Part shown: positions 18,335 through 51,478 of the stretch, piece after piece
How the letters are laid out: every line of letters begins with the position of its first letter
Position numbering within the stretch: the stretch's first letter is position 1
Position numbers and translations under genes: made by a program
The notes under the pieces: generated by a model
What the model saw: only the letters and a program-made list of their open reading frames with translations
Told to the model about the DNA's origin: nothing
The model's database searches: none
Source: an uncultured Candidatus Micrarchaeota archaeon
Lineage (GTDB): Archaea > Micrarchaeota > Micrarchaeia > Anstonellales > Bilamarchaeaceae
Assembly: GCA_963723105.1 (NCBI GenBank)
Contig: CAVRPK010000002.1
Span: 121,098 to 185,097 of the forward strand
Length of the DNA: 64,000 nucleotides
Reading direction: 5' to 3'

Positions 18335-18365
18335 CTTTTTCTTTTTTATCCTTTATTCTATAATC

Positions 18366-18884: not shown

Positions 18885-18977
18885 CGATTTCAAATTTTAT
18901 TTTTATTGTATTTTTTCCAAAATTCCTCAAACAGAAAACTTTATATTTGATGCCTAATTGTATCTCTCGGGATTAAT

Positions 18978-19409
18978 ATGATGAAACTTATGGGTCTTGT
19001 TTTAACCGGAGCAGATGTGAAAAAGGCAACTAGCAGCATTCCAAAGAGTGTTAATGTTGATCTTGCAGTCACTAAAATCACAAAAAAAGATGCAACAACA
19101 ATTACTCTTGATTTTGCATATATAATTGATTATCTGCCAAAAATCGCAAGAGTAAGGTTGACTGGCCATGCATATTGTCAGGATAGCGCTCCTAACATCA
19201 GAAAAGCACTTTTAACCTATAAGAAAACCAAAAAACTTCCATTTGAAATTGCCGGCGAAGTTTTGAATATGATCAATGCCAATGCTGGAATGAATGCAAT
19301 TTTCTTAATTAGGCCATTTAATTTGCTTCCACCATTTATGCCTCCTTTAATTACTTCGGAGTCACTTGAGCCAAAACGAGTTAAAATGAAATCAAAGAAG
19401 AAAAAATAA
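18978..19409 (+). CDS. hypothetical protein
   Basis: 143-aa ORF of host-like composition (Lys-rich) with no recognisable motif. Confidence 0.3.
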   Translation: MMKLMGLVLTGADVKKATSSIPKSVNVDLAVTKITKKDATTITLDFAYIIDYLPKIARVRLTGHAYCQDSAPNIRKALLTYKKTKKLPFEIAGEVLNMINANAGMNAIFLIRPFNLLPPFMPPLITSESLEPKRVKMKSKKKK

Positions 19410-19443
19410 TTTTTTTCTTGCTATTTTTTTAAAAAATAAAAAA
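19410..19443. terminator. bidirectional oligo-T tract between convergent genes (archaeal-type terminator signal) just downstream of the 2873-aa gene stop
   Basis: The 34-nt spacer is T-run-rich on both strands (TTTTTTTCTTGCTATTTTTTT / TTTTTTATTTTTT). Confidence 0.35.
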
Positions 19444-22400
19444 TTACCACATTACTCTAGCAGTACCCATGATTCCCCATCCCATAGGAGCATTCATAAT
19501 TCCAGTAACGCTTTCTTCTTGTCCTGCCCATGGACTGAGTTGTTCTGGGGATGTAACTGAACCTGGTGTTGTTGGCCAGCTTCCTGAGTATCCCATAATA
19601 TGGCCAGATATTATTGTTCCTGGGTCACTACTTCCTGGATCTTGCCTTTCATAGGTTACTCCAAGGCCTCCTCTTAGAACTGGATATGTTTCGTATTCTG
19701 CTGCTGGATGGAGAGATCCCTCTGGTTCTGGACTTGTGGATGCATCTTCAAGCATTCTCCTTCTCTCAGCTCCTCCTTCAAAGAAGAAGTGGAGACTAAG
19801 AGATTCACCAGTAGTGATGTTTGTTCTTGCCCATGTGAGTCCAACTCCTGCAGTGGTTCTTTGAAGTTCATTTAGGTCTGAACACTCCCCTCCGCTTAGC
19901 TGTGAACAAACCTGTGCCATTTCATCAGCGTTTTCAAAGACATCATCACTTGCAAATACTACTTGTCTCGTTGTCTGATTGAAGAATACATATGAGTATA
20001 GCTGTTCGTTTACTCTCTCAGTATTAAGCATTGTAATGCGATGACTTAATCCAACCTGCCAATTGGTCCATTGCTCGTTTCCATATGTTCTCTGGCCATA
20101 TAATACACCTGCAAGAAGATCTTGTCTGTGGTCTTGTAATAATTGTGCAAGTGCGCCTATTGTCCAATTGCCACCTGGGCTATATTGTTCATGACCTGCT
20201 TCGGTAAGAGGTATTGTTAGTCCTCCCATGAGCCTAAATGCTGTCAGTGTTCGAAGTCTTCGATCTCCTGAGAATGTAAATTCGTAATCCTCGCCTTCTG
20301 TTGAAATGTCAAGTCTGCTAACTCCATGTCCAATGTAGTTGCCAGATTCTTCCCATTCATCAAGGTCTTCCTGAGTTCCAATCATGATAGAACCTCTTGA
20401 ATTTGGACCTGTTCCAATTCGGGTTACCATGACGAAATATCTATTTCTTCTCTCTGGACTATCCCCTTCCATTTCTGCATTGAGATGGCTTCCATAGATA
20501 ACATCATATCGTTCTGCCTGCTGTCTTCCATGCGAGTTCAATGCTGCTGCAAGGCAAGGTCTTATGTTCTGTTCAATTATTCTTCGAACTTCAGCTCCAG
20601 TTAATTCTGCTCTTGCTGGTGGCTGCCTGATATTGACTTCAGATAAACTTGCTTCAACGCTTCCGCTTGTTCCTGCTCTTCGTACAAACTCAGTTTCTAC
20701 TTCTTCAGGAGTTTTCAATACCCATCCAAGAGAATGAACATTGTTTTCAATGAGCTGTACTAGTTCTTCTCCATATTCAGTAGCAATGCGTTCTCGGTTT
20801 GGATTAACTCTTCTAAGTTCTCTATATATGTCTACAATTGCTTCTGCAGTTTCACTGCTTCTTCTTGAAGAAATTAACATTGCAAGTGGATCTTCATCCT
20901 CATCAATCATTCTTGCAAGCTCAGTTCTCACTTGTGCAACAGGTCGAATCATCCACTCAAGACCATTTCCTCTCTGTGCATGAACAATATCTGCAAATCC
21001 TTGGCCATAAATTCTTTCCATTCTGTCATGGCTGTATGCAACACTTCCAAGCCTGATGTATGCATCGCGTGCAGCTGCCGAATGATCTGAGGTTCTATGA
21101 AGCGTAACATTGCGCTCATACCTTGACAGTTCAATTGCAGGCCAATCAAGAACTCCAAAGCCCATATATGCATCAATATACGGATTTGCCCTCTCACTTC
21201 TTTGTACTTGGAACCCTCCTGTTGAATCAGGGTCTTCTACAATCATTACTGATGAATGGGTGTATCCATGACCAAGGAGGTCTATGTATGCACGAGCCGG
21301 TCTTCCAAATATAAACATTCCATAAAGATTTGCATATGCTGTTTCATCATCTGTCCATTGTCCTGTTGCAATTGTGTAAATTCTTAATCGCTCTCCATCA
21401 TATCCATAACCAAGTGCAAATCTCCAAATATCACTTGTAAAGTCATTTTGAAGGGAACTTGATAATCCTTGTAGAATCTGTTCTTCGTTTGTTGGATTTT
21501 GCTGAATGTCTAACATTGCCTGGTCTATCCGGTCATACAATCTACTAAATCCAGGAACTCTTTGCACTCCAGCAAGAATTCCATGCCTCCTGGCCCAGTA
21601 TGCCATAAGTAAACTTGCATAATGTTCGTTTGGTGCTTCTGGCTGATCCTCTGCTTCTCCTTGCCAGCCCTCCATTCTTCCATACATGTATGTTCCAGCT
21701 ACTAACCATCCAGTGTCACGAGCCTCGTCTTCTCCCCAACCATACATATTGACAAGAACATTTCTCATTGTTGCAAAAACTTCATCTGATTCCTGATCCA
21801 CTGCTCTGAATTCGCGCAGCAAATCTACTTCAGTATATCCACCAGTAAGTCCATGCCCATATGATCTGTGCGCGCCTGTCTGCCTTTCATATCTCCATCT
21901 GGCACCAGCTGTTAGTGGATATCCACCAACTGCACGGAATTCCATTGATGCTTGTCTTGGAGCAATTGCCATTCTTCTCCACATGAATTCTCCAGAACCT
22001 TCTGCCCAATGTGATCCATCTATACTTGTAGAATCCTCAGGATTCATTTCAAGAATCTGTGCTCCTCTGTAAAATCCTGCATAAATATCCCGAGCTCGTC
22101 CATCTTCAAGAATGTGGGTTACTGCTTGTCCCATGGCCTCCTCAGCATGTTGCGGAGTCATAGTTCCCATATCTCGAACAACTTGTCCAAGTGCAAGAGT
22201 AGTTGAAGTATCCCCTCTAGTAGTTGGAATTGTAAAGCCTACTGCAGCACCATCAAATCCAGCAAGAGCAGATTCTCCGTTAATCTCATTCCAAACTCCC
22301 TGCTCGCGCGCAAGCCTTTCAATTTCATCTGCGCCGGTTTGAGCTTGCTGCTCTGCATTTAGTCCAAGATGTCTTTCTATTAATCTAGTTCTCTCTGCAC

Positions 22401-25400
22401 CTGAAAGTGCTGGTGCAACTGCACTATTTCTTCCTGCAAATCTAAGGCCTGCCAGAATATTTCTGGTATCTGTACTTCCATATAAATAATTGAGTATCTG
22501 TGCGTGCGTATCAATTCCATATGCAAGATCATATGCATTTCCAGTTGATCCATCAATGTAGAAAAGTCTTGTTCTAAGCTGGCTTCTCTCATCCTGCAAT
22601 ACTGCTCCAACTGTGCCAGGAGCAGCTCCTTCTGGAACTGGCGCGCGAAGCTCTGGTGCATGTTCTCCGCCGACTACAACAAGCATATCTCCTCCAGAGT
22701 CTCTTGCAATTCTGGAATATGTTTCAAGAAGTCCACTGTATCTTTCTCTACTTTGCACCTCTCCAGTTTCTTCAGTTGTTTGGTCCGCACCTTCATAATT
22801 GAATCGTATATTCCCTCTTTGCAATCCTACTCCTTCTCCAAATGCAACTGGAATAACTCCAGCAACCCCCACTGGAAGTCCTGCTGCCTGAGCTTCAATA
22901 TCAACATCAGTTTCAGCTGTTTCACTATCTCCAGCCTCTTCTGATTCTACTGCTGTTCTTCTATGAGTTACAACCCCCCGGCCTCGAACTCCCCCAGTAA
23001 TTGCCCTTCCTTGCCCAACTCCTCCAACTGCTGCTACATCTGTTGAAGTTGTATCTGAGTCTGTTGCAGTTGGGATAGTTCCCTCATGACCGTAATAGCC
23101 ACCAACTTCCCAATCATGGCGAAGCCAATAGCTACTATAGTCTATTGGCATCTCACCAAATAATCTTGTTATCTCTCTGATAATTGTGGAAGCTCCAAGG
23201 GCTCCGATTCTATATCTTTGCGGAATTCCGTGTATCATATGTCTTCCAAGTGTTGGGTGCAGCATGTCATACATTCTTGAGAAATATTCAGTTGCACCAG
23301 AATCAAGTCCAAATCTGCTTGGAGGCTCAATCAAACTTCTTGGCATTGTTGGAGATGGGATTAAATTCCAAGGTTGTGCTGCTTGTCCATAAAGTTGTGG
23401 AAGTGGTTCCATTCCTTCCATTTGCAGGAAGTGGGGTCTGTACCTATATCCTTGAGGATTCCATGGACTTTCCATAAGTTGCCTTTCAGGAACTCTTCTA
23501 AGTTCATCCTCCATTCTATTGTGATCATATGTTGCAGTAACTTCTGGAAGTCTCTGTCCAATTCTGGCAAACACTTCAAGGAAGTATTCCCTGTTCCTAT
23601 GTGTGCTGTAAGAAAGAGTAGCTCCTGCTGTTGAGTACATCCTGCTGAATACTGTATTGAACGTTTCAATTCCGGCAACAAGTGTTCTTTCATCCTGTGC
23701 AACACTGATTATTGCTGGAAGAACCTGCAGGATGAATGGACCAACTAAGTATGGGTCTCTTTGACTAATCAATAACAGCGAATTCATTGTTGCCCGCGCG
23801 GCACTTGTTCCGAATTCTGAGCCCAGGCTTCCAATTCTGCCAAGTCCAACTCCAAGGTAAAGCGCATCAATAATCGAGAGTTGGTTTCTAAGGTTTGTTG
23901 CTTCTGCTTCAGTAAATCCTCGTGCATCTTCTGCATCAGAAGCTATTCCACTATCCCGTCTTCCCTGGAGGTATGTGCTCTCAAGCTGGCCATAGAATGT
24001 TCTTCCTGCAGTAATCAAATCTCTTCCTGATTCACTGCTAAGGAAACGTGCAAGGTCTTCTGGAGTTTGAAGTCCGCTTTCTGCAGTTCCTGGCGGAAGA
24101 CTGATACTGTATCTTCTTGCAAGTGTTTGCAGTTGTGAATTTAGAAGGTCCAGATTAATGAAATTTCTAAATAGATAATCATTTGATCCAAACTGGTCTC
24201 TGTAATGGTTAATTGCAAGAGTTAAGTTCGCACCAAGATCATCAGTTGCATTTGCAAAAACAAGAACTCCTTGAAGTCTTGAATAAACTCCTGGAAGAAC
24301 TTCAGCAACATGCCTGAAGTTTTGCATAAATTCTCCACGTGCAACCCCATCTCCTGCTTCAAAGCTTCTGTTTAATTGTTCTAATCGCTCTGCATCAACT
24401 TGTCTTAGGTGCTCAACATCACTAGTACTTAGGTTTTCAAGGAATCTAAGCTGTGCTCGGTTTCTCTCAACCATTTGCACAAATGCTGCTCCATATATTT
24501 GTCTAAGTCCTGCAATTCTTGCAGTTCTCTCTTCTGATGCCGGAGTGTTCAATGCTCCATAAACAGAACCAAGTGCATATAGCAGTTGTTCATCCTGATG
24601 TCTGTATGCTCTGTGAAGAGCAGTAACCACTCTGGTATATGCTTGTGGATATGCGCGGTATAATGATTGTCTTACTGATGCTGGAAGTGCAGTTACTTCT
24701 TCAAGTCCTGCTCTTGCCTCTGCAAGCGGAGCTAAATGCTCTCTTTGTCTTTCCACTGCACTGACAAATCTATCACCATAAAGCTCTACCATCCTCTCTC
24801 TTGTCTCAGTTCCATCAGGACGAGCTATTGCACGATAAACTCTGATCGTTATATTCGCAAACAATACGTTTTGGCCCATTCTCAAATTTTGTTCGCTAGT
24901 GCCAGTTAAATTTTCAAGGAATCCAAGAACTGGTCTGTGATCATTTATCAATCTGACAAATTCAGTTCCATGTCTTCTTTGCACATCCGCTACATTCCCG
25001 CTTCCTCTTGAAATCGCATTGTATGCCGTTCCAAGGTCTCTGCTAAATCCACGGTCTCCCATGCTGGAAATAAATGCTCTAAGCTCTGGATCAGCTCTGC
25101 CAAGTACAGCAAAAATAATATCTCCGATTACTGCTTGCTTGTCTGGATTTGTAACTCCACTGTACCAGGTCATTCCACTTCGAAGCGATCCAACATCGCT
25201 TGAGCTTGCAATTGTTTCTGAAAATCCATCAATACTGCCTGCAGTTCTTGAAAGGTCTCCTCCAGTTTCTGCAAGGTGAATCATTGAAAATGCAAGTTCA
25301 ACTGATCTTCTAAGTTCAGTTCCACTAATCATGCTTTCTTGCAGTGCTCTTTGTTCTGTTAGGAGGGTTTGTATTTCTGCTTGATCAGCACCACCTGCTG

Positions 25401-28065: not shown

Positions 28066-28178
28066 TTCCTGATTCTCCTATTCGGTTTGCACTTATAGAT
28101 TATCTTTGCCAATATTATTACAATGCTAATTCCAGTTGCCTATACTGATTACAACACATCTAATATTTAACATAGCGT

Positions 28179-28194
28179 ATCCCCCTAAGGGGAT
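28179..28194. promoter_or_regulatory. GC-rich palindrome ATCCCC-CTAA-GGGGAT in the 238-nt spacer between the 806-aa gene and the 2873-aa gene
   Basis: Seen directly. It is the only GC-rich dyad in an otherwise AT-rich spacer that must carry the signals separating or reinitiating the two giant-gene transcripts. Confidence 0.2.
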
Positions 28195-28303
28195 TCACTA
28201 AACTTGTATGGATCGGACTGTAATTATTTTACGATAACTTATCTATACTAGTTGTGTTAAGAAAAATTAAAAAAGGGTTGTTTCAGAAAGTGACTATCAG
28301 AGG

Positions 28304-33700: not shown

Positions 33701-36700
33701 ACTGCTTCAGAAGCTGCAAGGCTACTTTCAATCTCTGCAAGCCTTGCTGCTGCACCACGCTCTGTTGCTTCTACTATTAATGTCACTTCTTCAGTTGTAA
33801 ATGGTCTTGCATCAGTAAGTTCCATATATGCATCTGCAGTTCTACTGCTTCCAGCAGCCTGTCTTATTGATCCTTGTGTTCTTGCAAGTGCTCTTGCAAG
33901 TGCAGGATCACTTCTTGCTGCTGCTTCAAGATGGGGTCTGAGGTTTGGAGACGAATAAAGCTTTCTCAAAACTCCAAGATATCCTTCCCTTGTTCCTCTT
34001 CCTGCGCTTGTTGCCATTCTGTCTATTCTGACAAACAAGTCAATTGATCGCTGCACGCTGTTTCTTGCCATATTTGCAACTTCAGTTGCTTCTGCCCTTG
34101 CCTGCAGTGCTGTACGTTGTGCTGCCTGGACCTCAGCTGCAGGTGCTCCAGCTTCTGTCAGTGTCCTGAAATTTGCTTCTGCTCTTTCTGCTACTCTATT
34201 CGCTCTTCCAATTACAACATTGACTTCTTCCGGAGTCATGGTAATGTCTGAGATTATGTCACTCATTCTTGTCTGAGCATCTTCTATGATCCTGTCTGCA
34301 TTTGGAGGTTCTGCTGGATTTCTTCTTGCTGCTCTTGTTGCCCTCCAATCACGGAGCCTTCCAACTACTCTTCTATATAATAGTGTTCCTCTGCCAATCT
34401 GTCTTGGCTGCTCTCCTGGCCGAAGTATCCCTGATTCTAATGCTTGTGCATTGAGCTCTGCCTGCTGGCTATCTACTGCGCCTGGCTCTCTTACTCCAGT
34501 TGGTTCTCTTGGTGTGCCTCCAGTTCGTCTTTCACCACCACTTACTCTTCTGCTTGCTCCACCTGCCGGTGCTCCAGTTCCAGGAGGAGTTCCTGATGGG
34601 GGAGTACTTGCACTTGCTCGAATTGGTGGCATGGTTGTTTCGCCAGTTATTCTTGGCTGTCCTGGAACTTCAATAACATATTCTGTTCCAGTACCTGTTC
34701 TAATAATCTCAAATTCCATGGTTGCTTCTGCAGCATGTGCTTCAGTAATCACTTCATCCGGAACAGCTCTTCTAAGAGGTCCTGGTGCTTCAGGAGTTCC
34801 GAATTCCCTTAGTATTGCACGAGTTGAGAATGGTGTGTCTATTCCAGTATCAAGCGCATGCCTTACTGCTCTGTTTTGAAGAAGCACATCTATTCTGGCA
34901 GCTGCTTGTGGATGTTCTGCTCTTATTGCTTCAAGCCTTGCACGGGCTGCGATCATACTGCTTGTTCTTGCTTCTGCTGGAGTTGCTTCAAACCCTGCAA
35001 GCTCTCCAAGGAATGATCTGAATCGCTCTGGATTTGAAATAAATGATGCAAGATCGCGAAGTGGTCTCATTCCTCCTCCAGGTCCTCCTGGCGGAGTTGG
35101 GAATTCCAAACCTCTAATTCCGCGCACAAGTGCTGCTTCTGCAAGTTGATTTAATTCCCCTCCGCGAAGTGCTGTTCTTATTGCGCCCTGTCTCATAAGC
35201 TGAGAAATTTGGATTCTAAGTCTTGATGAAAAACCTCCGAAAATTTCAAGTGCAATCGGATTCTGTGCGCGAAGTAGTCTCATGAACCTGAACATTGTAC
35301 TTGGGTTTCCAAGTTCGCGTGCTCCTAATACTTCTGGCGGAGCTTCTCCAAATTCTGCTGCAAATTCTCTTGCATAAATTCTTGCTTGGCCTCTTGCTGA
35401 TCTTATAGCAATTGCCCTTCTAGCAGCAGATCCTCCCATTAGTGCCCATGGGAAAAGTCCAAGTCCGATCATAAGAGCTGCATTTGTAGTATCTCCTCTT
35501 TGATATGCCTGATATCCATGATAGAATGCATATCCTGAGAAGAACGTTGCAATTCCAAGATTCGCAACATTCAATCCAGTTGCAACTCTTGAGAGTCTTA
35601 TTGCATGGGTAGTTGCACCAGCTGCCCGGGCTGCAAGTGCAGCACGACCTACTCTTGCAGCAGCACCCATCATCCCAAGGCTTACTACTACAAGTCCTGC
35701 CATTGCCCAGCTTTCTGCTGATGCATGGCCATGAACTCTGTATTCAGTTACAATTTGTTCAGCTGCCATTCCAAGGAATATTGCTCCTGAAACATATGGA
35801 CCAACTACTGGAATAAATGCAGCTGCAAGTCCAGCGCCAATTAATGCCCACTGAAGTGCCTGCTGATTTCTTTGAACTGTTTGCTGCATTACTGTAAGTA
35901 TTGATTGTGCTCTCTCAAGTGCAGCTGTTGCCACTTCGCCCTGACTTTCGTAAGCATGACGAAGCTGGCTTAGCACTTCACTTTGCGCTCTTGCATAATC
36001 AGTAGTTATCTGAGCTGCTCCGCTTTGAGGAATTGCAAATATTGAAGTTTCAAGAAGAGTTGCAATTTGTCCTCTTCTATTGAGCTCATCATCGCTAAGG
36101 TTTCCAAATAGGATTTGATGGAATGCACTCAAATGCGCAGATCTATAAAATTCAAAACCCTGCATTCTTCGCTGTTCATCATAAGCAGTTCTAACTGCTT
36201 GTCTTCCACCAAGAGCTTGTGCGAGTCCTGGCGCTCTAGCAAACAAAATTTGTGTTGCCATCGGAGAGTTTTCTGCCAGGTATCCCATCAAAGCTTCTTG
36301 TCTGCTTGAGATTGCCTGCATGTAAGCTTGCTCTGCATCTTCAAAATTATTTATCAGCATTGCTCTTCTTGCTGCAATTAATTGATCTTGGCACTGGACT
36401 AATCTTGCTCCAGTTCGCGCAGCTACTTCCCCACTTGTAGTTAGCACAACTTGCCTGTATTGTTCGTTAAGAGCAAGCTGTCCATTTAGAACTGCAAATG
36501 CACGTGCAATTCTCGCTTCCCTGCTAACTTCTCCAAGGAATTCTCCAAGTTGCTGTTCTGGGAATGCTCCGTTTAATCCCTGCAATTGTTCAAAGAAAGC
36601 AAGTGCCTCACCAGCTAGATGCGGCATCACATATGTTGAAGTTGCCTGTAGCGAACTGATATAATGAATGAGGGCAGTTCTTCTTGCTTCAAGTCTTGTT

Positions 36701-37806
36701 ATTGCAGCTCGCCTTGGTGCAAGATCTCTTGCTGATGGTGCAGCTACTCCTTCTGGAACATTATCATAGAGTCCGCCAATTTCTACAAGCATTCTATTTA
36801 CTTCAAGAAGCCTGTCTCTTGCGCTCTGAAGATTTTGCTGTCTTAGTGTTCCTGCTGTAACATGCCCTAGTCTTGTATTGAATCTGTCAACTACGCGATT
36901 GAACTCTGCCATATTTCCTGTTGTAGCAGCAACTCTAAGTTGTCTTGTGAGTTGCCTTAGGGTTCTCTGTCCGCGAAGCCTTGGATCAGTTCCAGCAAAG
37001 TCTCTTTCGTATCGTCGAACATCAGCAAGAGCAACATATCCTTCATATCTTCCCCCTGTTCTTGTTCCAAGAGGCAATTGCCCTCTGGTATCTGTCTGTC
37101 CGGCAACCCAATCCTGCCTTCCCATGATTCTCTCTTCAAGCTGATGCGCTCTTGTTAGAAGAATTTCGGTATTTGCAATTCTTGCTGAGCCTGAATCAAA
37201 CCTTTCAGCTGCAGCAGTATGTTGTTCCAGTGTTTGTGCATTGACTTCCATTTCAATTGCTTCAAGCATCTCCTGTCTTCCTTGCACATAACCTGGAGTT
37301 CTCTGTCCAAAGCTGGTTGAAAATAATCCATATCTCCATCCTTCTCTTTGTCTGCTTTCTGCAGTTCCATAATAGTCTCTGGCATATTGAAGCAGAATGT
37401 GCGCTCCTTGGAAATCTCCTTGTCTTGCCCTATCTCTTGCTACTGCAAGTGCATCTTGTATCCCATCTTGCCCAATTTCTCTTCCTGCAATTGATCTTTC
37501 AATTCTTCCTGCTTCGCGTCTTACATATGCATTTTGTGCAGCTGCATAACTTTCTACAAATCTCTGTTCAATAGGCTCTCCAGCAAGTGTGAATCTTCCT
37601 CCTCTTGCATATTCAATTATCCGTTCCATTCCCTGAAGGAAGGCTGCATCGGATTCTGCTACTGATGTTATTCTTCCGCTTCTTCGAACTCCAAGTCTTT
37701 CAACTGCTTCGCTATACATTGCAATAAATGTCAAAACTCTTCTTGCTCTTGTAAGGTTTCCCTGTTCAATAAGATCATCAATATGACGCAAGCGTTTCAG
37801 TTGCAA
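30724..37806 (-). CDS. giant (2360 aa) Lys/Cys-depleted protein with internal hydrophobic four-helix core (approx 35409-35859); ORFan
   Basis: Uninterrupted 7.1-kb ORF. The start as called is TTG (the first ATG is 29 codons downstream). Residues approx 650-800 form four hydrophobic helices (LIGAGLAAAFIPVVGPYVSGAIFLGMAA ... AMAGLVVVSLGMMGAAA ... LNVANLGIATFFSGYAFY ... ALMIGLGLFPWALMGG) embedded in an otherwise highly charged Arg/Ala/Glu-rich polypeptide. A Pro/Thr/Gly-rich low-complexity tract lies near residue 1020. Confidence 0.7.
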   Translation of the reverse strand: MQLKRLRHIDDLIEQGNLTRARRVLTFIAMYSEAVERLGVRRSGRITSVAESDAAFLQGMERIIEYARGGRFTLAGEPIEQRFVESYAAAQNAYVRREAGRIERSIAGREIGQDGIQDALAVARDRARQGDFQGAHILLQYARDYYGTAESRQREGWRYGLFSTSFGQRTPGYVQGRQEMLEAIEMEVNAQTLEQHTAAAERFDSGSARIANTEILLTRAHQLEERIMGRQDWVAGQTDTRGQLPLGTRTGGRYEGYVALADVRRYERDFAGTDPRLRGQRTLRQLTRQLRVAATTGNMAEFNRVVDRFNTRLGHVTAGTLRQQNLQSARDRLLEVNRMLVEIGGLYDNVPEGVAAPSARDLAPRRAAITRLEARRTALIHYISSLQATSTYVMPHLAGEALAFFEQLQGLNGAFPEQQLGEFLGEVSREARIARAFAVLNGQLALNEQYRQVVLTTSGEVAARTGARLVQCQDQLIAARRAMLINNFEDAEQAYMQAISSRQEALMGYLAENSPMATQILFARAPGLAQALGGRQAVRTAYDEQRRMQGFEFYRSAHLSAFHQILFGNLSDDELNRRGQIATLLETSIFAIPQSGAAQITTDYARAQSEVLSQLRHAYESQGEVATAALERAQSILTVMQQTVQRNQQALQWALIGAGLAAAFIPVVGPYVSGAIFLGMAAEQIVTEYRVHGHASAESWAMAGLVVVSLGMMGAAARVGRAALAARAAGATTHAIRLSRVATGLNVANLGIATFFSGYAFYHGYQAYQRGDTTNAALMIGLGLFPWALMGGSAARRAIAIRSARGQARIYAREFAAEFGEAPPEVLGARELGNPSTMFRFMRLLRAQNPIALEIFGGFSSRLRIQISQLMRQGAIRTALRGGELNQLAEAALVRGIRGLEFPTPPGGPGGGMRPLRDLASFISNPERFRSFLGELAGFEATPAEARTSSMIAARARLEAIRAEHPQAAARIDVLLQNRAVRHALDTGIDTPFSTRAILREFGTPEAPGPLRRAVPDEVITEAHAAEATMEFEIIRTGTGTEYVIEVPGQPRITGETTMPPIRASASTPPSGTPPGTGAPAGGASRRVSGGERRTGGTPREPTGVREPGAVDSQQAELNAQALESGILRPGEQPRQIGRGTLLYRRVVGRLRDWRATRAARRNPAEPPNADRIIEDAQTRMSDIISDITMTPEEVNVVIGRANRVAERAEANFRTLTEAGAPAAEVQAAQRTALQARAEATEVANMARNSVQRSIDLFVRIDRMATSAGRGTREGYLGVLRKLYSSPNLRPHLEAAARSDPALARALARTQGSIRQAAGSSRTADAYMELTDARPFTTEEVTLIVEATERGAAARLAEIESSLAASEAVAQRTGQALETARVNLEAARTRGVTGRRLARLEAAHERANTAHETAFEQNQQLVQQTRDQRAALRPLAQTERLLGTEFSAGDRAALLLQLEGRGAISGDVIIAEGLTLRNSTRSMIGRISAEGDPVAQAVRRGISEQMLQGGNLDDAIATVLRSERVGRAVRENYGPQQRRIFEQAIGEGGNIEVVFDMGTPLARMLRSVRTAEMRANFHAIGISNPRMEQLIPGISEQAGILAREASHTVRGTVGEYATGAWRWVFGHRATGTRAHFPLTHWGGMQYYRAIQSARAAGGSVPYAMLRPSNSVRMVPQIATWAGAGYLGWRFIYSPLHDMLSNEDEIRQGIAIAQRDFGISISEENALWITDTEEGRQFYFHLPNTLPQSTDRRPGNQEQLTALLEGSGHYLNPRRMNEFLTDGREMTGRLEDINELLDTRRTAAEGSADRTEAERELLAIIQPWGISLEMVDATLVSERKEHLDITDMADLRMSQWRERGIVMSFAEGAATQLLADAGVITPAEIQAGRPNAEHARMIEFLHNNPSAFAFVWMGVQQGHIPVVYLDNVISELSSEANRTSISSLVTLTPARRAQVLRGLLTDENLYLGTAIAQNSFLGNLDRRACTDPSVRTTLESLLRTYESNTAALRAFNRFNLTEGEFGEEIYGDLNALATLIAENPGTALATARESGQVAPRIFAQMDGALRGSEYAEAIAFATTHTEMRGGRATNGVMKWMADNGHQIENLHEILRHIQANAQTQDMAPQAIYEYLDRQSGYYRSRGWWSGSTPVEMRERAGGAERRSRGDARSSTPRRTDAGRTRAEVLEEEERPRYPRRPGFETRQPAEQQDEETEEPAEVERAPTVGLSPEAQSFYQSEERGGVQIAEFIDARIDALFNDVEGEGTRRRGDGVVMRAAFGEDQEGIESAQQANRAHARTEIKADIYRIITGTSDRSARLRRSLGITVEGEGADMTVSFSARGARTAYRNHIHGYARAHRSRRQ

Positions 37807-39013
37807 CTGTTTTCTGTGAAAATCTTCCCCAGGTTCCTATTCTTGTTCTAAGTTCACTTACTGTTGAAGAATATTCATGGCGAAGTGTTCCGTCATGGAA
37901 CTGTTCACTGCTGTCGGTTCCGGTAAGCTCTGCATCAAGTGCTGCTTCCATCTGCTCTGAGCCTGCAAATGCTCTCCATCTTCTCTGCTCACCAATTGTT
38001 GTGTATGCAGTTACCATATCAAACAATCGTTCTGCTCCAGCAACATCCCCACTCAAAAGCCTAACTCTCGCAGCCTGAATTGCTGATCGAATTCTTTCTC
38101 TTTTTGCTGCTGGGCCTCTATTTCTATATCTTGTTTCAAGCGAATCCATATCTGCTCTTAGCGTTGCGATATTGAGCGTGTCCTGGAATCTGTGCGCCAT
38201 TGCTGGCGTGAATGAAATCCTTCCATCAATGATTCTGTTTATCTCTGCATAATTATCGAGATATCGTCTTCCTTGTCCATTTGCAATCTGCTCAAGAAGA
38301 CCCATCATCATTGAAAGTCTTGCAATCTGAACCTCACTAGAATCAAGTGCATCAAGTGCTCTTTGAGCATACCATGCCGGGCTATGTTCTGCCGGAGCTC
38401 TTCTTGAAGTTCCCCTAAGCGCAACTGCCCTTTCCCTCAAATCTTCTACTTGTTCCGTTTCAGTTCTTGGCTGCACTGTTCCGCTTAATATATGGTATCT
38501 CTGAATCAGTCCTCGAGCCTGCTGAAGATCAACTGTCCTATCTCTCCCAAGTCTTGCTAAAAAAGTATCCATCTCCTGCTGAAGGCTTTGGATGGCAGCT
38601 GCCCGTATTCTATCTTGTGCAACATCTGCAGAAATTAATTCAAGTTGCTGCCTGTAGTGTGTGAGTGTTGCTATTGTTTCAGTTCTAATTGCAGATTGTG
38701 CTGTCCTTAAATCCTCAGTAAATTGTCCAATAAACTGCCTATCTGCTATTGCATCTTCTTCTGAATATATCACTCCCTCTCTGGCATCTTCGCCTCTCTC
38801 AATAATAAATCTGTATCCTCTATCTCTGATAATTGATGCCTGGGATCCTTCTATCCTGCTAAGCTGAGGAAGTCTTGCAAGCAATCTCCCAACTGCTAAA
38901 ATATTAATTCCTCTTTGGTTGTTACGTGTTCCAATATCAATAAGCGCTGATTCAAGTCCGTTGCAATACTTCATCTGGAATGTCCTCACTTTCAATTCCA
39001 GAAATTTGTACAT
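37778..39013 (-). CDS. hypothetical 411-aa protein of the giant-gene cluster (Lys-depleted, Arg-rich, predicted helical)
   Basis: ATG start. It overlaps the upstream 175-aa gene by about 60 nt and the downstream giant gene by up to 29 nt. After the first 15 residues there are no further Lys. Confidence 0.5.
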   Translation of the reverse strand: MYKFLELKVRTFQMKYCNGLESALIDIGTRNNQRGINILAVGRLLARLPQLSRIEGSQASIIRDRGYRFIIERGEDAREGVIYSEEDAIADRQFIGQFTEDLRTAQSAIRTETIATLTHYRQQLELISADVAQDRIRAAAIQSLQQEMDTFLARLGRDRTVDLQQARGLIQRYHILSGTVQPRTETEQVEDLRERAVALRGTSRRAPAEHSPAWYAQRALDALDSSEVQIARLSMMMGLLEQIANGQGRRYLDNYAEINRIIDGRISFTPAMAHRFQDTLNIATLRADMDSLETRYRNRGPAAKRERIRSAIQAARVRLLSGDVAGAERLFDMVTAYTTIGEQRRWRAFAGSEQMEAALDAELTGTDSSEQFHDGTLRHEYSSTVSELRTRIGTWGRFSQKTVATETLASY

Positions 39014-39479
39014 TTGTTGGAGTTCCTGCGAGAAGCAATCTCATTCCAATATCATAAACTTCTCCGATTCTTACAATCTTATCTCTTGCCTCTGCAAGTG
39101 ACCTAACTGCATTTCCAAGTCTTCCTTCATTTGCTTCGGTTACTGATCTTTCAATTACTGCTTCTATCATTTCAAGTTCGTTTGTGTATCTTTGCCCAAG
39201 AATCGGAACAGATGTAAGATGCATTCTTGTAACTGTTCTTCGAAGCATATCTGCATCCCTTTGAACTCCTTCTGAGGTCCTTGCTCCAGGACTTACTCTT
39301 ATTTCTCCTGCGTATTCGAGCAGTTCACTGATCTGTGCTTGCACTCTTGTAAGTCCTTCTCTAAGTTCCTGTTCTTGTCCTGGACTTACTACTGTTCTGA
39401 TTGGTACAATAGAAATTGGAAGGTGACTTTCTTCTCTTGTTTCCGGTCTTCTTCTTTGACGTTCTGCCATAATCTTCAC
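38952..39479 (-). CDS. hypothetical 175-aa protein of the giant-gene cluster (Arg-rich)
   Basis: Start GTG at 39479 or ATG at 39470; abuts the stop of the 106-aa gene. Composition matches the cluster. Confidence 0.45.
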   Translation of the reverse strand: MKIMAERQRRRPETREESHLPISIVPIRTVVSPGQEQELREGLTRVQAQISELLEYAGEIRVSPGARTSEGVQRDADMLRRTVTRMHLTSVPILGQRYTNELEMIEAVIERSVTEANEGRLGNAVRSLAEARDKIVRIGEVYDIGMRLLLAGTPTNVQISGIESEDIPDEVLQRT

Positions 39480-39800
39480 CTATGAATATGTTTGACAAAT
39501 TAGAACAAAGTCACGCAGTCTATCCATGCGAGCTTTCTCATCTTCTTTTCCTTTTGCTCTTAGTGCTTCTCTCTGCCAGCTTTCAAGAGCGCCGTGGAAA
39601 TTCCTTATTTTTACAACCTGCGGAAAAATATTGTCTGGTTTTGTTGGTGCAGCATCCCATTTTGCAAGGAAACTCTCCAGGGAATTGAGTGTTCGCCCTA
39701 CACGTTTCATTGTTTCATCTTCAACAGAATTAACATCCAGTTTTTTTGGGATTTTTGTTACTTTTGATTTACGTGAAGGTTTCTTTTTAGACATAGACAC
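39480..39800 (-). CDS. hypothetical 106-aa protein with strongly basic Lys-rich N-terminus (possible nucleic-acid-binding or chaperone-like)
   Basis: MSMSKKKPSRKSKVTKIPKK... followed by a predicted helical domain. It is preceded by a TTTATAAA box about 40 nt upstream (39828-39835, minus strand). Confidence 0.45.
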   Translation of the reverse strand: MSMSKKKPSRKSKVTKIPKKLDVNSVEDETMKRVGRTLNSLESFLAKWDAAPTKPDNIFPQVVKIRNFHGALESWQREALRAKGKEDEKARMDRLRDFVLICQTYS

Positions 39801-39916
39801 ACCTATAAAAAAGTATGCCGAAGCAACTTTATAAATGTGGCTTTGATCCTATTGAGTATTATTAGTATGGATTATGGCAGTAAAATTAGAAAAATAAATT
39901 AGAAAAAAGAAAAAAT
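39801..39916 (-). promoter_or_regulatory. intra-cluster spacer with oligo-T tract directly after the 1253-aa gene stop and TTTATAAA / TTTTTATA boxes upstream of the 106-aa gene; candidate terminator plus internal promoter
   Basis: On the minus strand, TTTTTTCTTTTTTCT follows the stop. The TATA-like octamers lie at -44 and -19 relative to the next ATG. Confidence 0.3.
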
Positions 39917-42900
39917 TTATTCTGCATTTCTATTTGCACGAGCAAAAGTCATGATGTGTGATGAGAGTCCTTTTCGAGCGCGCCTTGCATCAAATGTAAC
40001 CTCAGTTATCTCTTCGCGTTCTTCTTCTCCCTCAGGTACATCTACCTTTGTTTTTACTATTTTCACTCCCCAGCCTTTTCTTAGCTGTGCGCTTCTTTTG
40101 CTGGTTCCCTCAAGCACTCTTAGAACTTCTCCTTTAACTGCAGTTTCAGCTCTAGCTCGATCTCCGCCATATAACTTTTGCAGGGATTCTTGGTCTCCAT
40201 AAAGTCTTTCAAATGTTATATCCACGAATTCTGTCCATTCTGTGAATCTCTCATCAGCATAGAACTGGCTTGCTGCCTTGGTTTGCTCTGCTTTTGTTGG
40301 GCCTGCTCTTGTCTCAGTAGATCTCATATCCTCTGCATTGAATATGTATCCTGCATTAATTGCACCCTGAGCGCTTTTTCCTCGTGGCTCTGTAAACGGA
40401 TCATAATCACTTACTGATCCTCCAGATTCCTTATGCCTTACAAGAAGCTGTACAAACTGATCTGATCTTCCAGTGTTTATCTTGTACAGTGCGCCGTTTT
40501 TGACGAACTTTTCAAGAAGTTCTCGAACATCTGGCTGAGCAACAAACGCATCTTTTGAAGGTTGCAGTTGTAAGTTGAGCTGGGATATTGCTTTTTCTGC
40601 TTGATTCAGTCTATACTCGGTTGTGCAGTCCTCATCCCATCCGCTTTCTCCTGCCTTTGTCATAACCTTGGCAAATGTGCTTCTCATGGTTTCTTCTGGA
40701 ACTTCATCTGAAAGTGGATTTGGAGTGCCTTCACCTGAAGATATTTCGCTTCTCCAAGCTGCCAGGAATTCTTCTCTATGTTCGGTCTTTACAAATCTTT
40801 CTGCTTCGCCACGATTTACAAGTGGAAGCATAAGTGTTGTTACCATTGCTTTCTGTGCAACTGCAAAGTCAACATTTTCATCTCCACTGATTCCGAATCT
40901 TTCCATAGCCTCATCCTGCTGTTCAGTGATAAGGAATCTTCGCTCGTTCCAGGTAATCATGTTCTTGGTATCTCTAAGGAATGCGCCATCTATTTTTGCG
41001 CCTCCTTCTTCACCTTCTTCTCCCTGCTGAGTTCTAAGATAATTGACAAATTCATCTGACTTTTGTTTGTTAAGCTTTAGTCCATCTGTAATTTGTTCAG
41101 TATCCATTTCAAGTAAACAACATACTGGCATTGCTTTGTTTGGCAGCCATCCCTCATCAGTAACAAGGTCTGGTGCTTCAAATGCCGCAACATCATCATC
41201 ATTTTCAAAACTGAATGGGGCAGCTTTGCAGCTTTCTGGAATATGTACCTTTTTCGTGCTGCATGTTTCAGGTGTATCAACTGGAAGTTCTCTTGGCTCA
41301 CTCTTTACTCTGATAAGTGATCTTCTCTCCTGGAAGAATCTCAGAACTTCTGGATTTTCAGCAACCCACTCGAGATTTTCTTCGCCTCGAACTCCATAAT
41401 TGTCCCTGTAAAATTGTTCTCCCCGACCAGCTAGTTTGGTGTAATCATCCTTACTGTCATTGATGAGTCTTCTATGAGTTTGTGGTGTGTCAACTGAAGT
41501 TACCCATGTCCATGGCTGATAAAGTCTGCTGTGTCCATCCAATGCAAATTTGGTATTTTGGGGAACACTTGCAGTGTAATGCTGCCATAAACTTGGAGAT
41601 GCATTATATCCATAAATTCCAGTTCCAACTATGTATCCCAATGTGATTGCATGTATAATTCCAACATGCCATCTTTTGAGGTTGAACCATCCAAACATTT
41701 TGTATGTTTTTTTATTGTCATTTCCAATTCTTGGAATAACCTGTCTTCTTTCTTTAATTAAATTCTTTACGAGTGTTCTAAGTGTTGTGATGGTATATAC
41801 TTTACCTGCTATCCATCCAACTACATCAAGAGTAAAGAATGTTCTATAGAACCCATGTGCGATTCTATCAAATAGCCCTTCAATTTCCATCGGCAGTGCT
41901 TCAACCTTTTCCCCAGTCTTTTCCCAAATAGTTTTTGCAATAACCCACTGTGTTTCACTGATCTCTCCGATCTCCATGATGGAACCATCTTCAAGTTTCT
42001 TAATTGCAAGTTTAGCTGCTTCCCGAGCTGGGTATGCATACTTGTTCTTGAATTTTATGCATTTTCCATCAACATATCCTTTTGGAAGGCTCATGTTTCT
42101 TGTTGCTTCAACTATTTTTTGAAGTTCTTTTTTTACTTCTTCAGGTAATTCTGAACCTTTAACATCTTCTGCAAGCTTGTTGATTTTTGCATTAAATTCT
42201 TCCCATTCCTTTTCGAAAGATTCTTTTGCAACCTGCTCAATTGTTTTTGCAAATCCTCCAGTTTCTTTGATTTGTGGCCCTCTTTCATTTGCAAGTGCTT
42301 GCATCAACGACTCTTTTTCTGAAAGAGCTTCTTCAACATCATCTAATAGCAATGTGATTTTTGGATATTCTGCCCATTTCATTGTTTCAGGCATTTCTTT
42401 CAAAAGTCCAGCATCATTTGCTTCAAGAAGTTTTCTTCTAAATGCTGTTTCAAATTCTGTAAGTTTTTCTCCAAAGAATTTTCTCTTATCAGAGGCTTCT
42501 TTGTATACTGTCATCATTCCTTGTAACAGGCCGGTAAGATGTGTAACATCTTGTTCTGCAGCTTCAACTTCTCGGTTAAGACCTTCCTCGAGTTGTCTCA
42601 CCTGCTCTACTTTATCCCCAACAATCTCTCCTTTATCTCTTGCCTGCTGGATCCTTTCAGATGCTTCTGATCTTTTTTGTTTTGCAGCTTGCAGTACTGC
42701 TTTAGCTTCTTCTACTTTTGGCGCTAACTGATTCACCGGTTCTGCTGCCTGTTCAACTGTTTCTTTGCTGATCTGCTCAAGTCCAAGGCCTGGAACTCCT
42801 GTTTCTGCATGAATTTCATTTGAAGGAGTTTGCATAATCTCCCGAACCACTTTTCTAAACTCATCAACTGTTCTCTCTATTGGTTCATTTGATTTTTGCT

Positions 42901-43678
42901 CTAGATAAGTATCTACGTAATTAGGGTCAATAAGTCCTCTTTGAACTCTTAATTTTGCATCTGTAGTGAGTGACTTTCTCTCAGATAGCTGTTTGAGGAC
43001 ACTACCAATGTATTCCCCCTCTTTACCTTGGCTCTCCGTTTTGGCAACATTTTCCAAAAATGCGAAAAATGCTTCTGGTGGCGACGGACAGTCTGCTCCC
43101 CATCTTCCCCAAAATTCTCCAATATTTGTTGTTTTCAATCCTATTAATGTAACATATAATATATCAAGGTCATCTGCTGATAACTCCTCGACAGTACGTT
43201 TCTCAAGCATTCCAGCAAGCCTTTTTCTTACCTTAACCATTTGTTCTTTGTATTTTGGACTTGCTTCCTCCAGCGGAGTTGGAAGCTGGTCCTGGTTTCT
43301 TACAATTGCAATGAACTGATCCTGGCACATTACAGTTCGAATCAAATCGTCTGAAGTATCAAATCCTTCTGCTCTGACGTTTCCTCTTCGAAGTGCGTTA
43401 ATGAGTATTTTGTTAAATCCATGAAGCCCTGCATTTGCAACATCTGAGCTGTCTGATCCTTTTGTTGCTCTTCCTTGTTTTTCTTCTTCATGTTCATCTC
43501 GAGCAGCAAGTCTTGCTTTCTCCTCATCTGCGGCAATTAGGGTTTTTCTAGACCTTGAAAATGGTCTTGCTGCCCAACCTTTTTTTACTGTTCCCCCTAC
43601 TGCTCCAGCGGCTCTTCTAAATTTGCCTACTGCTGGATCTCTCGTCTGTGCTTGTTTCATACCTGTGCTATCCGCCAT
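39917..43678 (-). CDS. hypothetical 1253-aa protein, first gene of the cluster; acidic, Lys-containing, with one internal hydrophobic segment and coiled-coil-like regions
   Basis: ATG start preceded by an AT-rich promoter-like spacer (43679-43885). The hydrophobic stretch is WHVGIIHAITLGYIVGTGIYGY. Long heptad-like Glu/Lys/Gln-rich segments are present. Unlike the five downstream genes it has normal Lys content. Confidence 0.6.
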   Translation of the reverse strand: MADSTGMKQAQTRDPAVGKFRRAAGAVGGTVKKGWAARPFSRSRKTLIAADEEKARLAARDEHEEEKQGRATKGSDSSDVANAGLHGFNKILINALRRGNVRAEGFDTSDDLIRTVMCQDQFIAIVRNQDQLPTPLEEASPKYKEQMVKVRKRLAGMLEKRTVEELSADDLDILYVTLIGLKTTNIGEFWGRWGADCPSPPEAFFAFLENVAKTESQGKEGEYIGSVLKQLSERKSLTTDAKLRVQRGLIDPNYVDTYLEQKSNEPIERTVDEFRKVVREIMQTPSNEIHAETGVPGLGLEQISKETVEQAAEPVNQLAPKVEEAKAVLQAAKQKRSEASERIQQARDKGEIVGDKVEQVRQLEEGLNREVEAAEQDVTHLTGLLQGMMTVYKEASDKRKFFGEKLTEFETAFRRKLLEANDAGLLKEMPETMKWAEYPKITLLLDDVEEALSEKESLMQALANERGPQIKETGGFAKTIEQVAKESFEKEWEEFNAKINKLAEDVKGSELPEEVKKELQKIVEATRNMSLPKGYVDGKCIKFKNKYAYPAREAAKLAIKKLEDGSIMEIGEISETQWVIAKTIWEKTGEKVEALPMEIEGLFDRIAHGFYRTFFTLDVVGWIAGKVYTITTLRTLVKNLIKERRQVIPRIGNDNKKTYKMFGWFNLKRWHVGIIHAITLGYIVGTGIYGYNASPSLWQHYTASVPQNTKFALDGHSRLYQPWTWVTSVDTPQTHRRLINDSKDDYTKLAGRGEQFYRDNYGVRGEENLEWVAENPEVLRFFQERRSLIRVKSEPRELPVDTPETCSTKKVHIPESCKAAPFSFENDDDVAAFEAPDLVTDEGWLPNKAMPVCCLLEMDTEQITDGLKLNKQKSDEFVNYLRTQQGEEGEEGGAKIDGAFLRDTKNMITWNERRFLITEQQDEAMERFGISGDENVDFAVAQKAMVTTLMLPLVNRGEAERFVKTEHREEFLAAWRSEISSGEGTPNPLSDEVPEETMRSTFAKVMTKAGESGWDEDCTTEYRLNQAEKAISQLNLQLQPSKDAFVAQPDVRELLEKFVKNGALYKINTGRSDQFVQLLVRHKESGGSVSDYDPFTEPRGKSAQGAINAGYIFNAEDMRSTETRAGPTKAEQTKAASQFYADERFTEWTEFVDITFERLYGDQESLQKLYGGDRARAETAVKGEVLRVLEGTSKRSAQLRKGWGVKIVKTKVDVPEGEEEREEITEVTFDARRARKGLSSHIMTFARANRNAE

Positions 43679-51403: not shown

Positions 51404-51478
51404 GCTGCGTTCGTCTAGTCCGGTCAAGGATTGTGGACTTTCACTCCATCGACCTGGGTTCGAATCCCAGACGCAGCA
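51404..51478 (+). tRNA. tRNA-Glu(UUC), intron-less, begins immediately after the tmk stop codon
   Basis: GCTGCGT-TC-GTCT-AGTCCGGTCA-AGGAT-GTGGA-CTTTCAC-TCCAT-CGAC-CTGGG-TTCGAAT-CCCAG-ACGCAGC-A. The acceptor stem is 7 bp, the anticodon stem GTGGA/TCCAT encloses loop CTTTCAC, and the T-arm is canonical. Confidence 0.85.

Follow-up and report, generated by a model that had tools for sequence, protein, structure and literature searches.

A lysine-purged cluster of giant proteins fixed in one clade of Micrarchaeota: a candidate envelope-associated module

We analysed a window of 64,000 nucleotides (nt) from an uncultured Candidatus Micrarchaeota archaeon (contig CAVRPK010000002.1 of assembly GCA_963723105.1), in which a block of minus-strand genes at 19444-43678 codes for very large proteins that have lost nearly all of their lysine. 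A preliminary description of this DNA had proposed seven genes in the block, and all seven minus-strand open reading frames (ORFs) were located there in the ORF list. The true gene count is however five, as the ORFs of 175, 411 and 2360 amino acids (aa) are pieces of a single gene, g3f. The cluster thus consists of g7 (1253 aa), g6 (106 aa), g3f (~2,930 aa), g2 (806 aa), and g1 (2873 aa), with a possible sixth member, x143. The housekeeping surroundings reported earlier were also found, with GGR, DJ-1, PRPP synthetase, PGM, MscL, and aTrm56 on one side, and ftsY, prefoldin (pfdA), and eIF6 on the other.

That g3f is one gene emerges from its relatives (related loci and proteins are designated here by L and P numbers, respectively). 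When used as a query, the 2360-aa product returned only six proteins, of which two close relatives of ~2,910-2,924 aa cover it fully, on contigs with the layout 104 aa → 2,924 aa → 804 aa (GDSL) → 2,886 aa. By tblastn, P0003 (2,924 aa) aligns to the window with its residues 1-170 in frame -3, 167-560 in frame -1, and 550-2924 in frame -2, and DNA alignments at the breaks show that each frame switch, near 38962 and 37800, corresponds to one extra base in the window with respect to three intact relatives; neither insertion lies in a homopolymer run. The ORFs at 38952-39479 (175 aa), 37778-39013 (411 aa), and 30724-37806 (2360 aa) therefore represent one Lys-free gene at 30724..39479 on the minus strand. 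The overlaps at 37778-37806 and 38952-39013, first read as stop/start junctions, are in fact frameshift sites, across which P0003 aligns continuously. Likewise, the small Arg-rich accessory proteins of the preliminary description dissolve into g3f fragments (411 and 175 aa), and g6, the one genuine small protein of the cluster, is rich in Lys.

Intact g3f ORFs of 2,825-2,924 aa are present in at least nine relatives (L001, with two copies, L002-4, L006, L007, L009, L011, and L012). In the distant L001/L010 (GCA_046331685.1) two g3f-type giants of 2,825 and 2,895 aa stand in tandem, the second preceded by a g6-like gene. All three pieces in the window keep a ratio of nonsynonymous to synonymous substitution rates (dN/dS) of 0.16-0.22 against the closest relative, so that the disruption is either recent or an assembly artefact. 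A second, independent inactivation was found in L014 (JAHJJP010000036), which is 99.9% identical to L009 (JAHJDH010000012) over 22.5 kb but carries at position 14643 a TCA→TAA nonsense mutation at g3f codon 1551 that is absent in L009. Disrupted ORFs had been named beforehand as a finding that would speak against a functional system; g3f is indeed broken here and in L014, whereas elsewhere it is intact and under purifying selection. The two frameshifts and the L014 nonsense codon could also be taken to mean that the block is a decaying relic or a mis-assembled hypervariable region, whose giants are not functional proteins here, but we consider this very improbable: ORFs that stay open over 8.6 kb and 7.1 kb do not persist by chance in a genome of 38% GC, dN/dS against the closest relative is 0.06-0.22 for every cluster gene (the three g3f pieces included), which indicates purifying selection, g3f is intact in at least nine other genomes, and both the extreme composition and the sequence motifs are conserved down to 31-40% identity.

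The divergence of g3f also stands out. Between the window and L009, whose backgrounds are otherwise ~95-99% identical, its synonymous divergence (dS) reaches 0.49, against 0.06-0.25 for the neighbouring genes and 0.06-0.19 for the flanks. Since dS is high and uniform along the gene, and sliding-window dN/dS (ω) never exceeds 0.38, these values point to a divergent allele acquired via recombination and not to positive selection, and suggest allele replacement at g3f alone; with no sliding window above 0.38, we rejected diversifying selection on g3f.

We could not find any signal peptide in g3f. Its extreme N-terminus carries a conserved motif, PISIVPIRT (P-I-x-I-V-P-x-R), and a Kyte-Doolittle scan revealed a central hydrophobic core of three to five Gly/Ala-rich helices (residues ~650-795 of the g3 piece; 35422..35859, minus strand). 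A FIPVVGP motif of this core is kept in P0006, a protein outside the cluster that is 31% identical, with a conserved part corresponding to P0003 residues 328-1360. The C-terminal domain of g3f (30727..31167, minus strand) is homologous to that of g7, as indicated by blastp and hhalign.

The g3f stop codon overlaps the start of g2 in a TAATG at 30724, as had been noted, and the g3/g2 junction reads CAATAATGGCA. The g7-g6 spacer (116 nt, 39801..39916, minus strand) has a T-rich terminator-like run directly after the g7 stop, as read from the sequence, and a TATA-like TTTATAAA box ~25 nt ahead of the g6 start. The promoter/terminator-like character attributed to this spacer thus holds, but it is not the only one in the block, as claimed, since the 238-nt g2-g1 spacer (28066..28303, minus strand) has similar features, namely a T-rich run past the g2 stop, an AT-rich promoter-like stretch, and a GGAG before the g1 ATG. 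In the closest relatives, L009 and L014 (21093-23500), an insertion of ~2.5 kb between g2 and g1, which the window does not have, carries three minus-strand genes with normal Lys content, coding for proteins of 116 aa, 350 aa (with HEAT repeats), and 217-233 aa. In L019 (4259-9175), the same place is occupied by an extra Lys-poor ORF of 1,638 aa (K 0.6%), whose N-terminal region is weakly g1-like.

The second giant, g1 (2873 aa, 310 kDa; 19444..28065, minus strand), is also Lys-free, and has eight family members at 40-87% identity, for none of which a Pfam, NCBIfam, or PDB match was found. Its residues 1-56 form a signal peptide or anchor, in which a long n-region with positive charges precedes a hydrophobic h-region and a cleavage-like site, VMA-Q. 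The protein contains ~8-10 copies of a 58-aa helical repeat, with a first block at residues 468-1222 (24400..26664, minus strand) that follows the motif ...IY..L....P.R..L...YG..FV..V..N...L.WL..., and a second block of two repeats at residues 2327-2462 (20680..21087, minus strand) identified by a repeat hidden Markov model (HMM). The HMM built from the repeats of the window recovers units in the orthologues P0009, P0011, and P0012 at E 1e-9 to 1e-19, and has no match in g2, g3f, or g7.

The C-terminal region of g1 (residues ~2540-2873; 19447..20448, minus strand) is strand-rich and ends in the tail GW.(L/M)M..G.(I/V).W-COOH. Every full-length member ends in this Trp, including the one from the Lys-normal locus L018, and most have a tail of the form [YH]G.[IVM].W-COOH. 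A terminal aromatic residue closing an amphipathic strand, as used to recognise beta-barrels and autotransporters, is therefore present at the g1 C-terminus; a comparison of the g1 family with barrel-family profiles gave no match. AlphaFold2 (AF2) models place long hairpins at the C-terminus with a predicted local distance difference test (pLDDT) score of ~30 from a 5-sequence alignment, and only the second repeat block reaches 70-80.

Between the two giants, g2 (806 aa, a single Lys; 28304..30724, minus strand) combines an N-terminal beta-like motif, a Pro/Arg-rich linker (residues ~95-125), a helical domain, an SGNH/GDSL hydrolase domain, and a C-terminal domain; no signal peptide was found. 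The hydrolase domain (residues 388-551; 29072..29563, minus strand) matches Pfam PF13472 (Lipase_GDSL_2) at E 6.3e-10, with 40.3 bits against a curated cut-off of 32.9; its matches in PDB, to SGNH esterases, are weak. All four blocks of the SGNH/GDSL hydrolases (Ser, Gly, Asn, and Asp-x-x-His) are present, and in five orthologues at 35-93% identity they are invariant (VGASL, G, (V/A)N.G, GDHLH(P/L)N). The catalytic motifs are thus intact, and g2 is predicted to be an active esterase. It differs from other members of this family in that the hydrolase domain makes up only ~20% of the protein, the other domains have no relatives, lysine is absent, and the gene lies in an operon with giant genes. 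In L011, the g2 orthologue (18544-20109, 521 aa) lacks the SGNH domain and keeps both flanking lineage-specific domains.

The small gene g6 (39480..39800, minus strand) codes for a basic, Lys-rich protein of 104-106 aa (K 14%, R 8.5%) from a family of 104-110 aa, with translation probably beginning at the ATG at 39794 (MSKKK...). Its C-terminus, RLRDFVLICQTYS, is conserved. Pfam, NCBIfam, PHROGs, and PADLOC gave no match for g6. A g6 gene always lies immediately upstream of a g3f-type gene (L001, second copy; L002-4; L005; L009; L011; L012; L013), and this pairing is also kept where the two genes stand by themselves away from the cluster (L005, L013).

The first gene of the cluster, g7 (1253 aa, K 8%; 39917..43678, minus strand), lies directly downstream of ftsY, and its orthologues in L001, L009, L011, and L012 (27-92% identity) always adjoin ftsY as well. 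A 242-aa ORF that opens L010 is, by blastp, the C-terminal part of g7, cut by ORF calling and not a separate product. The N-terminal half of g7 is coiled-coil/helical with long helices, residues 619-637 and 672-690 are moderately hydrophobic, and the family alignment displays a conserved Cys cluster with an invariant Cys. No significant match was obtained in Pfam, NCBIfam, or PDB. The best PDB match, to Snf7 (E 0.034), falls on a coiled-coil stretch and was judged non-specific; the only toxin-type match, to LXG, also lies on a coiled-coil stretch and is below threshold (17.7 bits against a cut-off of 26.5), and a LegC2/C7 match reaches 18 bits against a cut-off of 350.

Homology between g7 and g3f is limited to a C-terminal domain of ~125 aa (g7 residues ~1128-1253; 39920..40297, minus strand), detected by blastp (E 5e-11) and by hhalign of the two families (99.3% probability, E 1.4e-20, in this domain only). 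Among 1.84 billion representative proteins, searched exhaustively by HMM, only 34 carry the domain, always at the extreme C-terminus and in two size classes, g7-like and g3f-like; none of the 26 carriers scanned has a Pfam domain. An AF2 model of the domain (pLDDT 76.9) consists of five helices, a beta hairpin, and a further helix, and a structure search with this model gave no fold match.

Apart from GDSL_2 in g2, which the preliminary description had already singled out as an SGNH domain, searches of Pfam, NCBIfam, PHROGs, and PADLOC with all products plus 8 and 26 family members gave nothing, and PDB sequence searches with single proteins and with family profiles of g1, g3f, and g7 returned nothing significant for the giants. 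No LXG, WXG, Rhs/YD, or toxin domain was above threshold in the cluster proteins. Full-length homology of the giants to well-characterised families, which had been put forward as a possible refutation, was thus looked for and not found, and their status as ORFans stands, as does the description of g1 as a signal-anchored repeat giant, of g3f as a giant with a hydrophobic core, and of g2 as an esterase with a Pro-rich linker. We could find nothing specific to this cluster, to its lysine purge, or to Lys-poor archaeal exoproteins in the searchable literature.

Of the 6,630 codons of g1, g2, and g3f taken together, only 23 specify Lys; this 0.35% compares with 8.9% for the flanking genes (binomial P ~1e-228). 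By protein, we counted 10 Lys in the 2873 residues of g1 (5 in the 2,817 of the mature form), 1 in the 806 of g2, and about 8 in the ~2,930 of g3f. To our knowledge, this ranks among the most extreme compositional purges. Half of the g1 lysines (5/10) lie in the signal-peptide segment at residues 1-56, and would be lost if the signal peptide is cleaved. Arg makes up 10-13% of the Lys-depleted proteins and is mostly encoded by AGA, which is one transition away from AAA. Lysine is normal in the other two proteins of the same cluster, g6 (K 14%) and g7 (K 8%).

Long conserved Lys-free stretches, by which Lys deserts are recognised, still occur in orthologues with identities as low as 31%. Most lineages conserve the purge, at a genomic GC of 38% as well as of 62%, and one does not. 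L018 (Ga0315275_10000649), which carries g3f→g2→g1→x143, provides a natural control lineage, as it is Lys-normal at 58.5% GC whereas L019 is purged at 61.6% GC, indicating that the purge is independent of genomic GC. These comparisons show that the purge can evolve and depends on the lineage, and that the fold does not require it; the existence of Lys-free and Lys-normal orthologues offers a direct experimental handle on the selective agent.

Lys deserts have a precedent as a means to evade Lys-directed tagging (PMC10665810). Like those of AB-toxin A chains, mycobacteriophage proteins, and components of the ubiquitin-proteasome system, the sequences of g1, g2, and g3f have had Lys removed and Arg kept, in a conserved manner. 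In contrast to them, the phenomenon is here archaeal and on a far larger scale (~6,600 residues in three proteins, at 0.35% in a 9%-Lys proteome), and is shared by exported housekeeping proteins of the organism. The 377-aa product of 61402-62535 (minus strand), which has a lipobox-like signal (…LGMIGTLGAC|G), carries all six of its Lys in the first 48 residues, and its mature part of ~330 aa has none, with 8.5% Arg, several N-x-S/T sequons, and no Pfam match. Similarly, a signal-anchored protein of 347 aa with no family match (51513-52556, minus strand) lacks Lys between residues 125 and 312 (~190 residues), and a signal-peptide cupredoxin of L005 is also Lys-poor. As these three unrelated proteins (lipobox, signal-anchored, and cupredoxin) share the trait, exposure outside the cytoplasm may be the common factor, which suggests that exported proteins of this organism generally avoid Lys; these are few cases, suggestive at most for N-terminal-signal proteins in general.

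The GC content of the block is higher than that of its flanks, as reported (0.41-0.47 against 0.35-0.40). However, GC at third codon positions (GC3) is 0.20-0.30 in the cluster genes and equals that of the flanks, and synonymous codon choice for Arg, Ala, Gly, Glu, Thr, and Leu agrees with them. Arg is encoded mainly by AGA/AGG, as in the neighbouring genes (80% in the Lys-depleted genes against 67% in the flanks). What raises the GC is therefore amino-acid composition and not a foreign origin: Arg, Ala, and Gly have taken the place of nearly every Lys, with a native GC3. No integrase or att site was found in or beside the block, and no direct repeats bracket it; the sole tRNA of the window lies at 51404, 8 kb away, in line with the earlier remark that integrase, transposase, and edge tRNA are missing. 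Profiles of g3f and of the C-terminal domain had no relatives among 2.9 million viral contigs, and PADLOC defence models gave no match at E<=0.01. That the block is an integrated mobile element, a provirus, or a defence island could be argued from its GC above that of the flanks and from one weak PHROG match to the g7 C-terminal domain (phrog_21416, E 6e-4, function unknown). This reading is effectively refuted by the native codon usage and GC3, the lack of integrase, tRNA target, and flanking repeats, the empty PADLOC and viral searches, and a chromosomal position that has remained the same across deep divergence. The view of a resident, lineage-specific block is thereby borne out, with the giants 31-50% identical at a fixed position.

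The full order ftsY→g7→g6→g3f→g2→g1→x143→Trm56 occupies the same place in Micrarchaeota whose giants are only 31-50% identical. At the ftsY end, the order ftsY→g7→g6→g3f→g2→g1 is kept in L001/L010, L011, and L012, where g3f is 31-33% and FtsY 58-74% identical, while the other end, g3f→g2→g1→x143→Trm56→MscL→PGM, is kept in L006, L007, and L019 at 40-50% g1 identity. The Lys-rich 143-aa ORF x143 (18978..19409, plus strand) is convergent with g1, and its homologues, identified by tblastn and blastp in L006, L007, L008 (two copies), L016, L018 (two copies), and L019, always follow g1 immediately on its downstream side, also at loci that lack Trm56 and MscL. Family searches, including PHROGs and PADLOC, gave no match for x143, which is possibly a sixth member of the cluster. 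The family is rare, being present in 5 of 185,579 GTDB species, all of them Micrarchaeota, and a metagenome scan with the g1 profile found 5 loci.

Such a core-like cluster, fixed beside the ftsY-pfdA-ribosomal block with native composition and under purifying selection, could represent a self-directed structure of the cell's own envelope or cytoskeleton (an S-layer anchor, a shape or division scaffold, or a membrane lattice) with no specific role in host contact, in which case the purge would be a general property of the exposed or long-lived proteins of this lineage. The Lys purge of ordinary exported proteins would fit, as would the coiled-coil-like helices of g7 and its weak, non-significant similarity to segments of Snf7, SMC, and keratin. 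On the other hand, the cluster is confined to few lineages, disruption of g3f is tolerated, which would be unusual for an essential scaffold, and we could not find any S-layer domain in g1 and the eight members of its family (Pfam, NCBIfam, and PDB sequences). The experimentally identified Micrarchaeota S-layer protein SLP_Mh has a size of 101 kDa and S-layer domains detectable by HHpred (10.1101/2021.04.28.441871); it shares with g1 the phylum, an N-terminal signal or anchor, and an envelope nature, but g1 is 310 kDa and has no S-layer domain match. We therefore regard a purely self-directed structure as possible but rather unlikely. Even if the giants prove to be ordinary envelope scaffolds, the loss of Lys from exposed proteins would add something new to the physiology of this lineage.

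The best-supported conclusion is that the cluster represents a conserved, native, and functional module of new protein families, which by sequence would include at least one exported giant, one membrane-inserting giant, and a predicted esterase. Going further, we tentatively favour, as an explanation that falls somewhat short of even odds, a chromosomally fixed module of one Micrarchaeota clade that builds a very large envelope-associated structure, most likely at the contact with a host. In this scheme, g1 would be exported through its Sec-type signal peptide and form a surface element with a helical-repeat stalk and a strand-rich end closed by the terminal Trp, while g3f, devoid of a signal peptide, would insert into a membrane via its central Gly/Ala-rich hydrophobic helices. 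A dedicated partner of g3f, acting as chaperone, adaptor, or regulator, could be provided by g6. For its part, g7 would be membrane-associated on the cytoplasmic side, where the shared C-terminal domain could dock or organise g3f, and g2 would use its SGNH esterase, mounted on lineage-specific domains, to deacylate a surface substrate. If g1, g2, and g3f leave the cytoplasm, their Lys purge may be an adaptation to a Lys-directed hazard outside or in a partner cell, with chemical damage, a Lys-specific protease, and ubiquitin-like tagging as candidates.

Several lines of reasoning favour a role in the envelope or at host contact. The cluster is a large investment for a reduced genome (we assume a small genome, as in other DPANN archaea), and the signal peptide and the Lys pattern point outside the cytoplasm. 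Moreover, the cluster is unlike the known Micrarchaeota S-layer protein (10.1101/2021.04.28.441871), and giant surface proteins have a precedent in DPANN episymbionts, where the SPEARE-type proteins of Nanohaloarchaeota (e.g. SVXNc_0300, 9,409 aa) have been proposed to act in host contact (PMC10266531). Like the SPEARE giants, the cluster consists of huge lineage-specific proteins to which a reduced DPANN genome devotes several percent of its length, with a Sec signal on the giant ectodomain (g1). There is however no sequence similarity between the two, and the cluster is made of Lys-free ORFans, rich in alpha-helical repeats or strands, spread over five genes. SPEARE proteins feature immunoglobulin (Ig)-like/fibronectin adhesion domains, a VirB4/TraG-like ATPase domain, and an adjacent secretion ATPase gene (PMC10266531), whereas we could not find any Ig-like, fibronectin, adhesion, or VirB4/TraG-like ATPase domain in the cluster proteins or their neighbours (Pfam, NCBIfam). 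What is new here are these families, their five-gene organisation, and the extreme avoidance of Lys; giant lineage-specific envelope proteins are already known in DPANN.

A number of observations weigh against an envelope-associated structure at host contact as just outlined. Neither g2 nor g3f has a signal peptide, and no ATPase, pilin/pilus, secretin-like, or other export component was found in or beside the cluster. With only g1 carrying a signal peptide, the secreted machinery used on another cell that the preliminary description had put forward is, like the localisation of g2 and g3f, the relations among the proteins, and the host-contact role, something that we infer. If the shared domain mediates contact between g7 and g3f, the C-terminus of g3f would then be cytoplasmic like that of g7. 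The density of N-glycosylation sequons is 0.29x expectation in g2 and 0.61x in g3f, against 1.17x in cytoplasmic proteins and 1.6-4.1x in bona fide secreted proteins of the window, and cuts against a simple exoproteome explanation; g1, at 1.39x, is marginally above the cytoplasmic value. Furthermore, L018 is Lys-normal in g2 (9.0%), in a C-terminal fragment of g3f (10.4%), and in g1 (4.7%), as is P0041 (5.2%), and these proteins still show the hallmarks of the family, the terminal Trp among them; as they are the same proteins with normal Lys, the purge is not intrinsic to the mechanism. A metagenome scan found no relatives of P0041. In addition, g3f is inactivated in two of three closely related genomes, so that either cells can do without it, for a short time at least, or the assemblies contain errors. 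Finally, AF2 gave a pLDDT of 40 for g1 residues 1700-2873 from the 5-sequence alignment, and no structure of a giant was obtained.

Some of these difficulties are better accounted for by an explanation that we nonetheless hold to be unlikely, in which g3f, and perhaps g2, would be delivered effectors or a translocon passed to a host, with g3f inserting into the host membrane, g6 acting as its chaperone, and Lys purged to escape tagging or degradation in the recipient (SAMP/Urm1-type conjugation, proteasome). It explains better than the envelope structure the missing signal peptides and low sequon densities of g2 and g3f, which are unlike those of Sec/AglB substrates, the pairing of g3f, with its conserved extreme N-terminal motif, to a small partner gene always upstream, and the lineage-variable, GC-independent Lys purge, as would be expected from a host-specific selective agent. 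The central Gly/Ala-rich hydrophobic cluster of g3f, its divergent allele (dS 0.49) in near-identical backgrounds, and the precedent of Lys deserts as an evasion device, with Lys-poor toxins and phage proteins as analogues (PMC10665810), also speak for it. Conversely, there is no identifiable export or injection machinery, and, with no g3f window above a dN/dS of 0.38, the protein sequence bears no mark of an arms race. The Sec-signal protein g1 and ordinary exported proteins are equally Lys-poor, so that a general extracellular cause explains more with fewer assumptions and is more parsimonious. Large clostridial toxins are signal-peptide-less and have a central hydrophobic delivery region. 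They bear a general resemblance to g3f in its 2.9 thousand residues, missing signal peptide, and mid-protein cluster of hydrophobic helices, but g3f has no sequence or profile similarity to toxin families, no recognisable enzymatic effector domain, and no receptor-binding repeats.

One can also envisage a new contact-dependent apparatus of an archaeal episymbiont. The Sec-exported g1 would span the gap to the host, and g3f, with g6 as its escort and g7 as its dock, would insert into the host membrane together with the esterase; all exported parts would have been stripped of Lys so as to evade a Lys-directed host countermeasure. We consider this version distinctly improbable as a whole. Were it true, it would be the first archaeal counterpart of a Lys-poor toxin/effector strategy, and a candidate conduit between DPANN archaea and their hosts. 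How DPANN archaea attach to hosts and take up resources is an open question for which we know of no molecular candidates in Micrarchaeota, and the cluster supplies concrete targets for cryo-electron tomography and proteomics.

A few observations concern the genes around the block. The longest aTrm56 ORF (18291-18884, plus strand) has a TTG start and overlaps the end of mscL by 44 nt; as the Trm56 domain begins at residue 80 of this ORF and relatives have 174-175 aa, the true start is probably further downstream. Rfam identified no RNA family inside the 24-kb block. Elsewhere in the window, an SRP (signal recognition particle) RNA gene lies at 54309-54565 (minus strand), for which the best Rfam model, the listing giving the best model of the clan only, is that of the bacterial large SRP (66.8 bits), although the source of the DNA is archaeal. 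The 5' part of ftsY (44845-45061) contains four diverged direct repeats of ~46 nt, which encode a repetitive Lys/Glu-rich N-terminal extension of the 491-aa FtsY protein (K 13.6%, E 15.3%).

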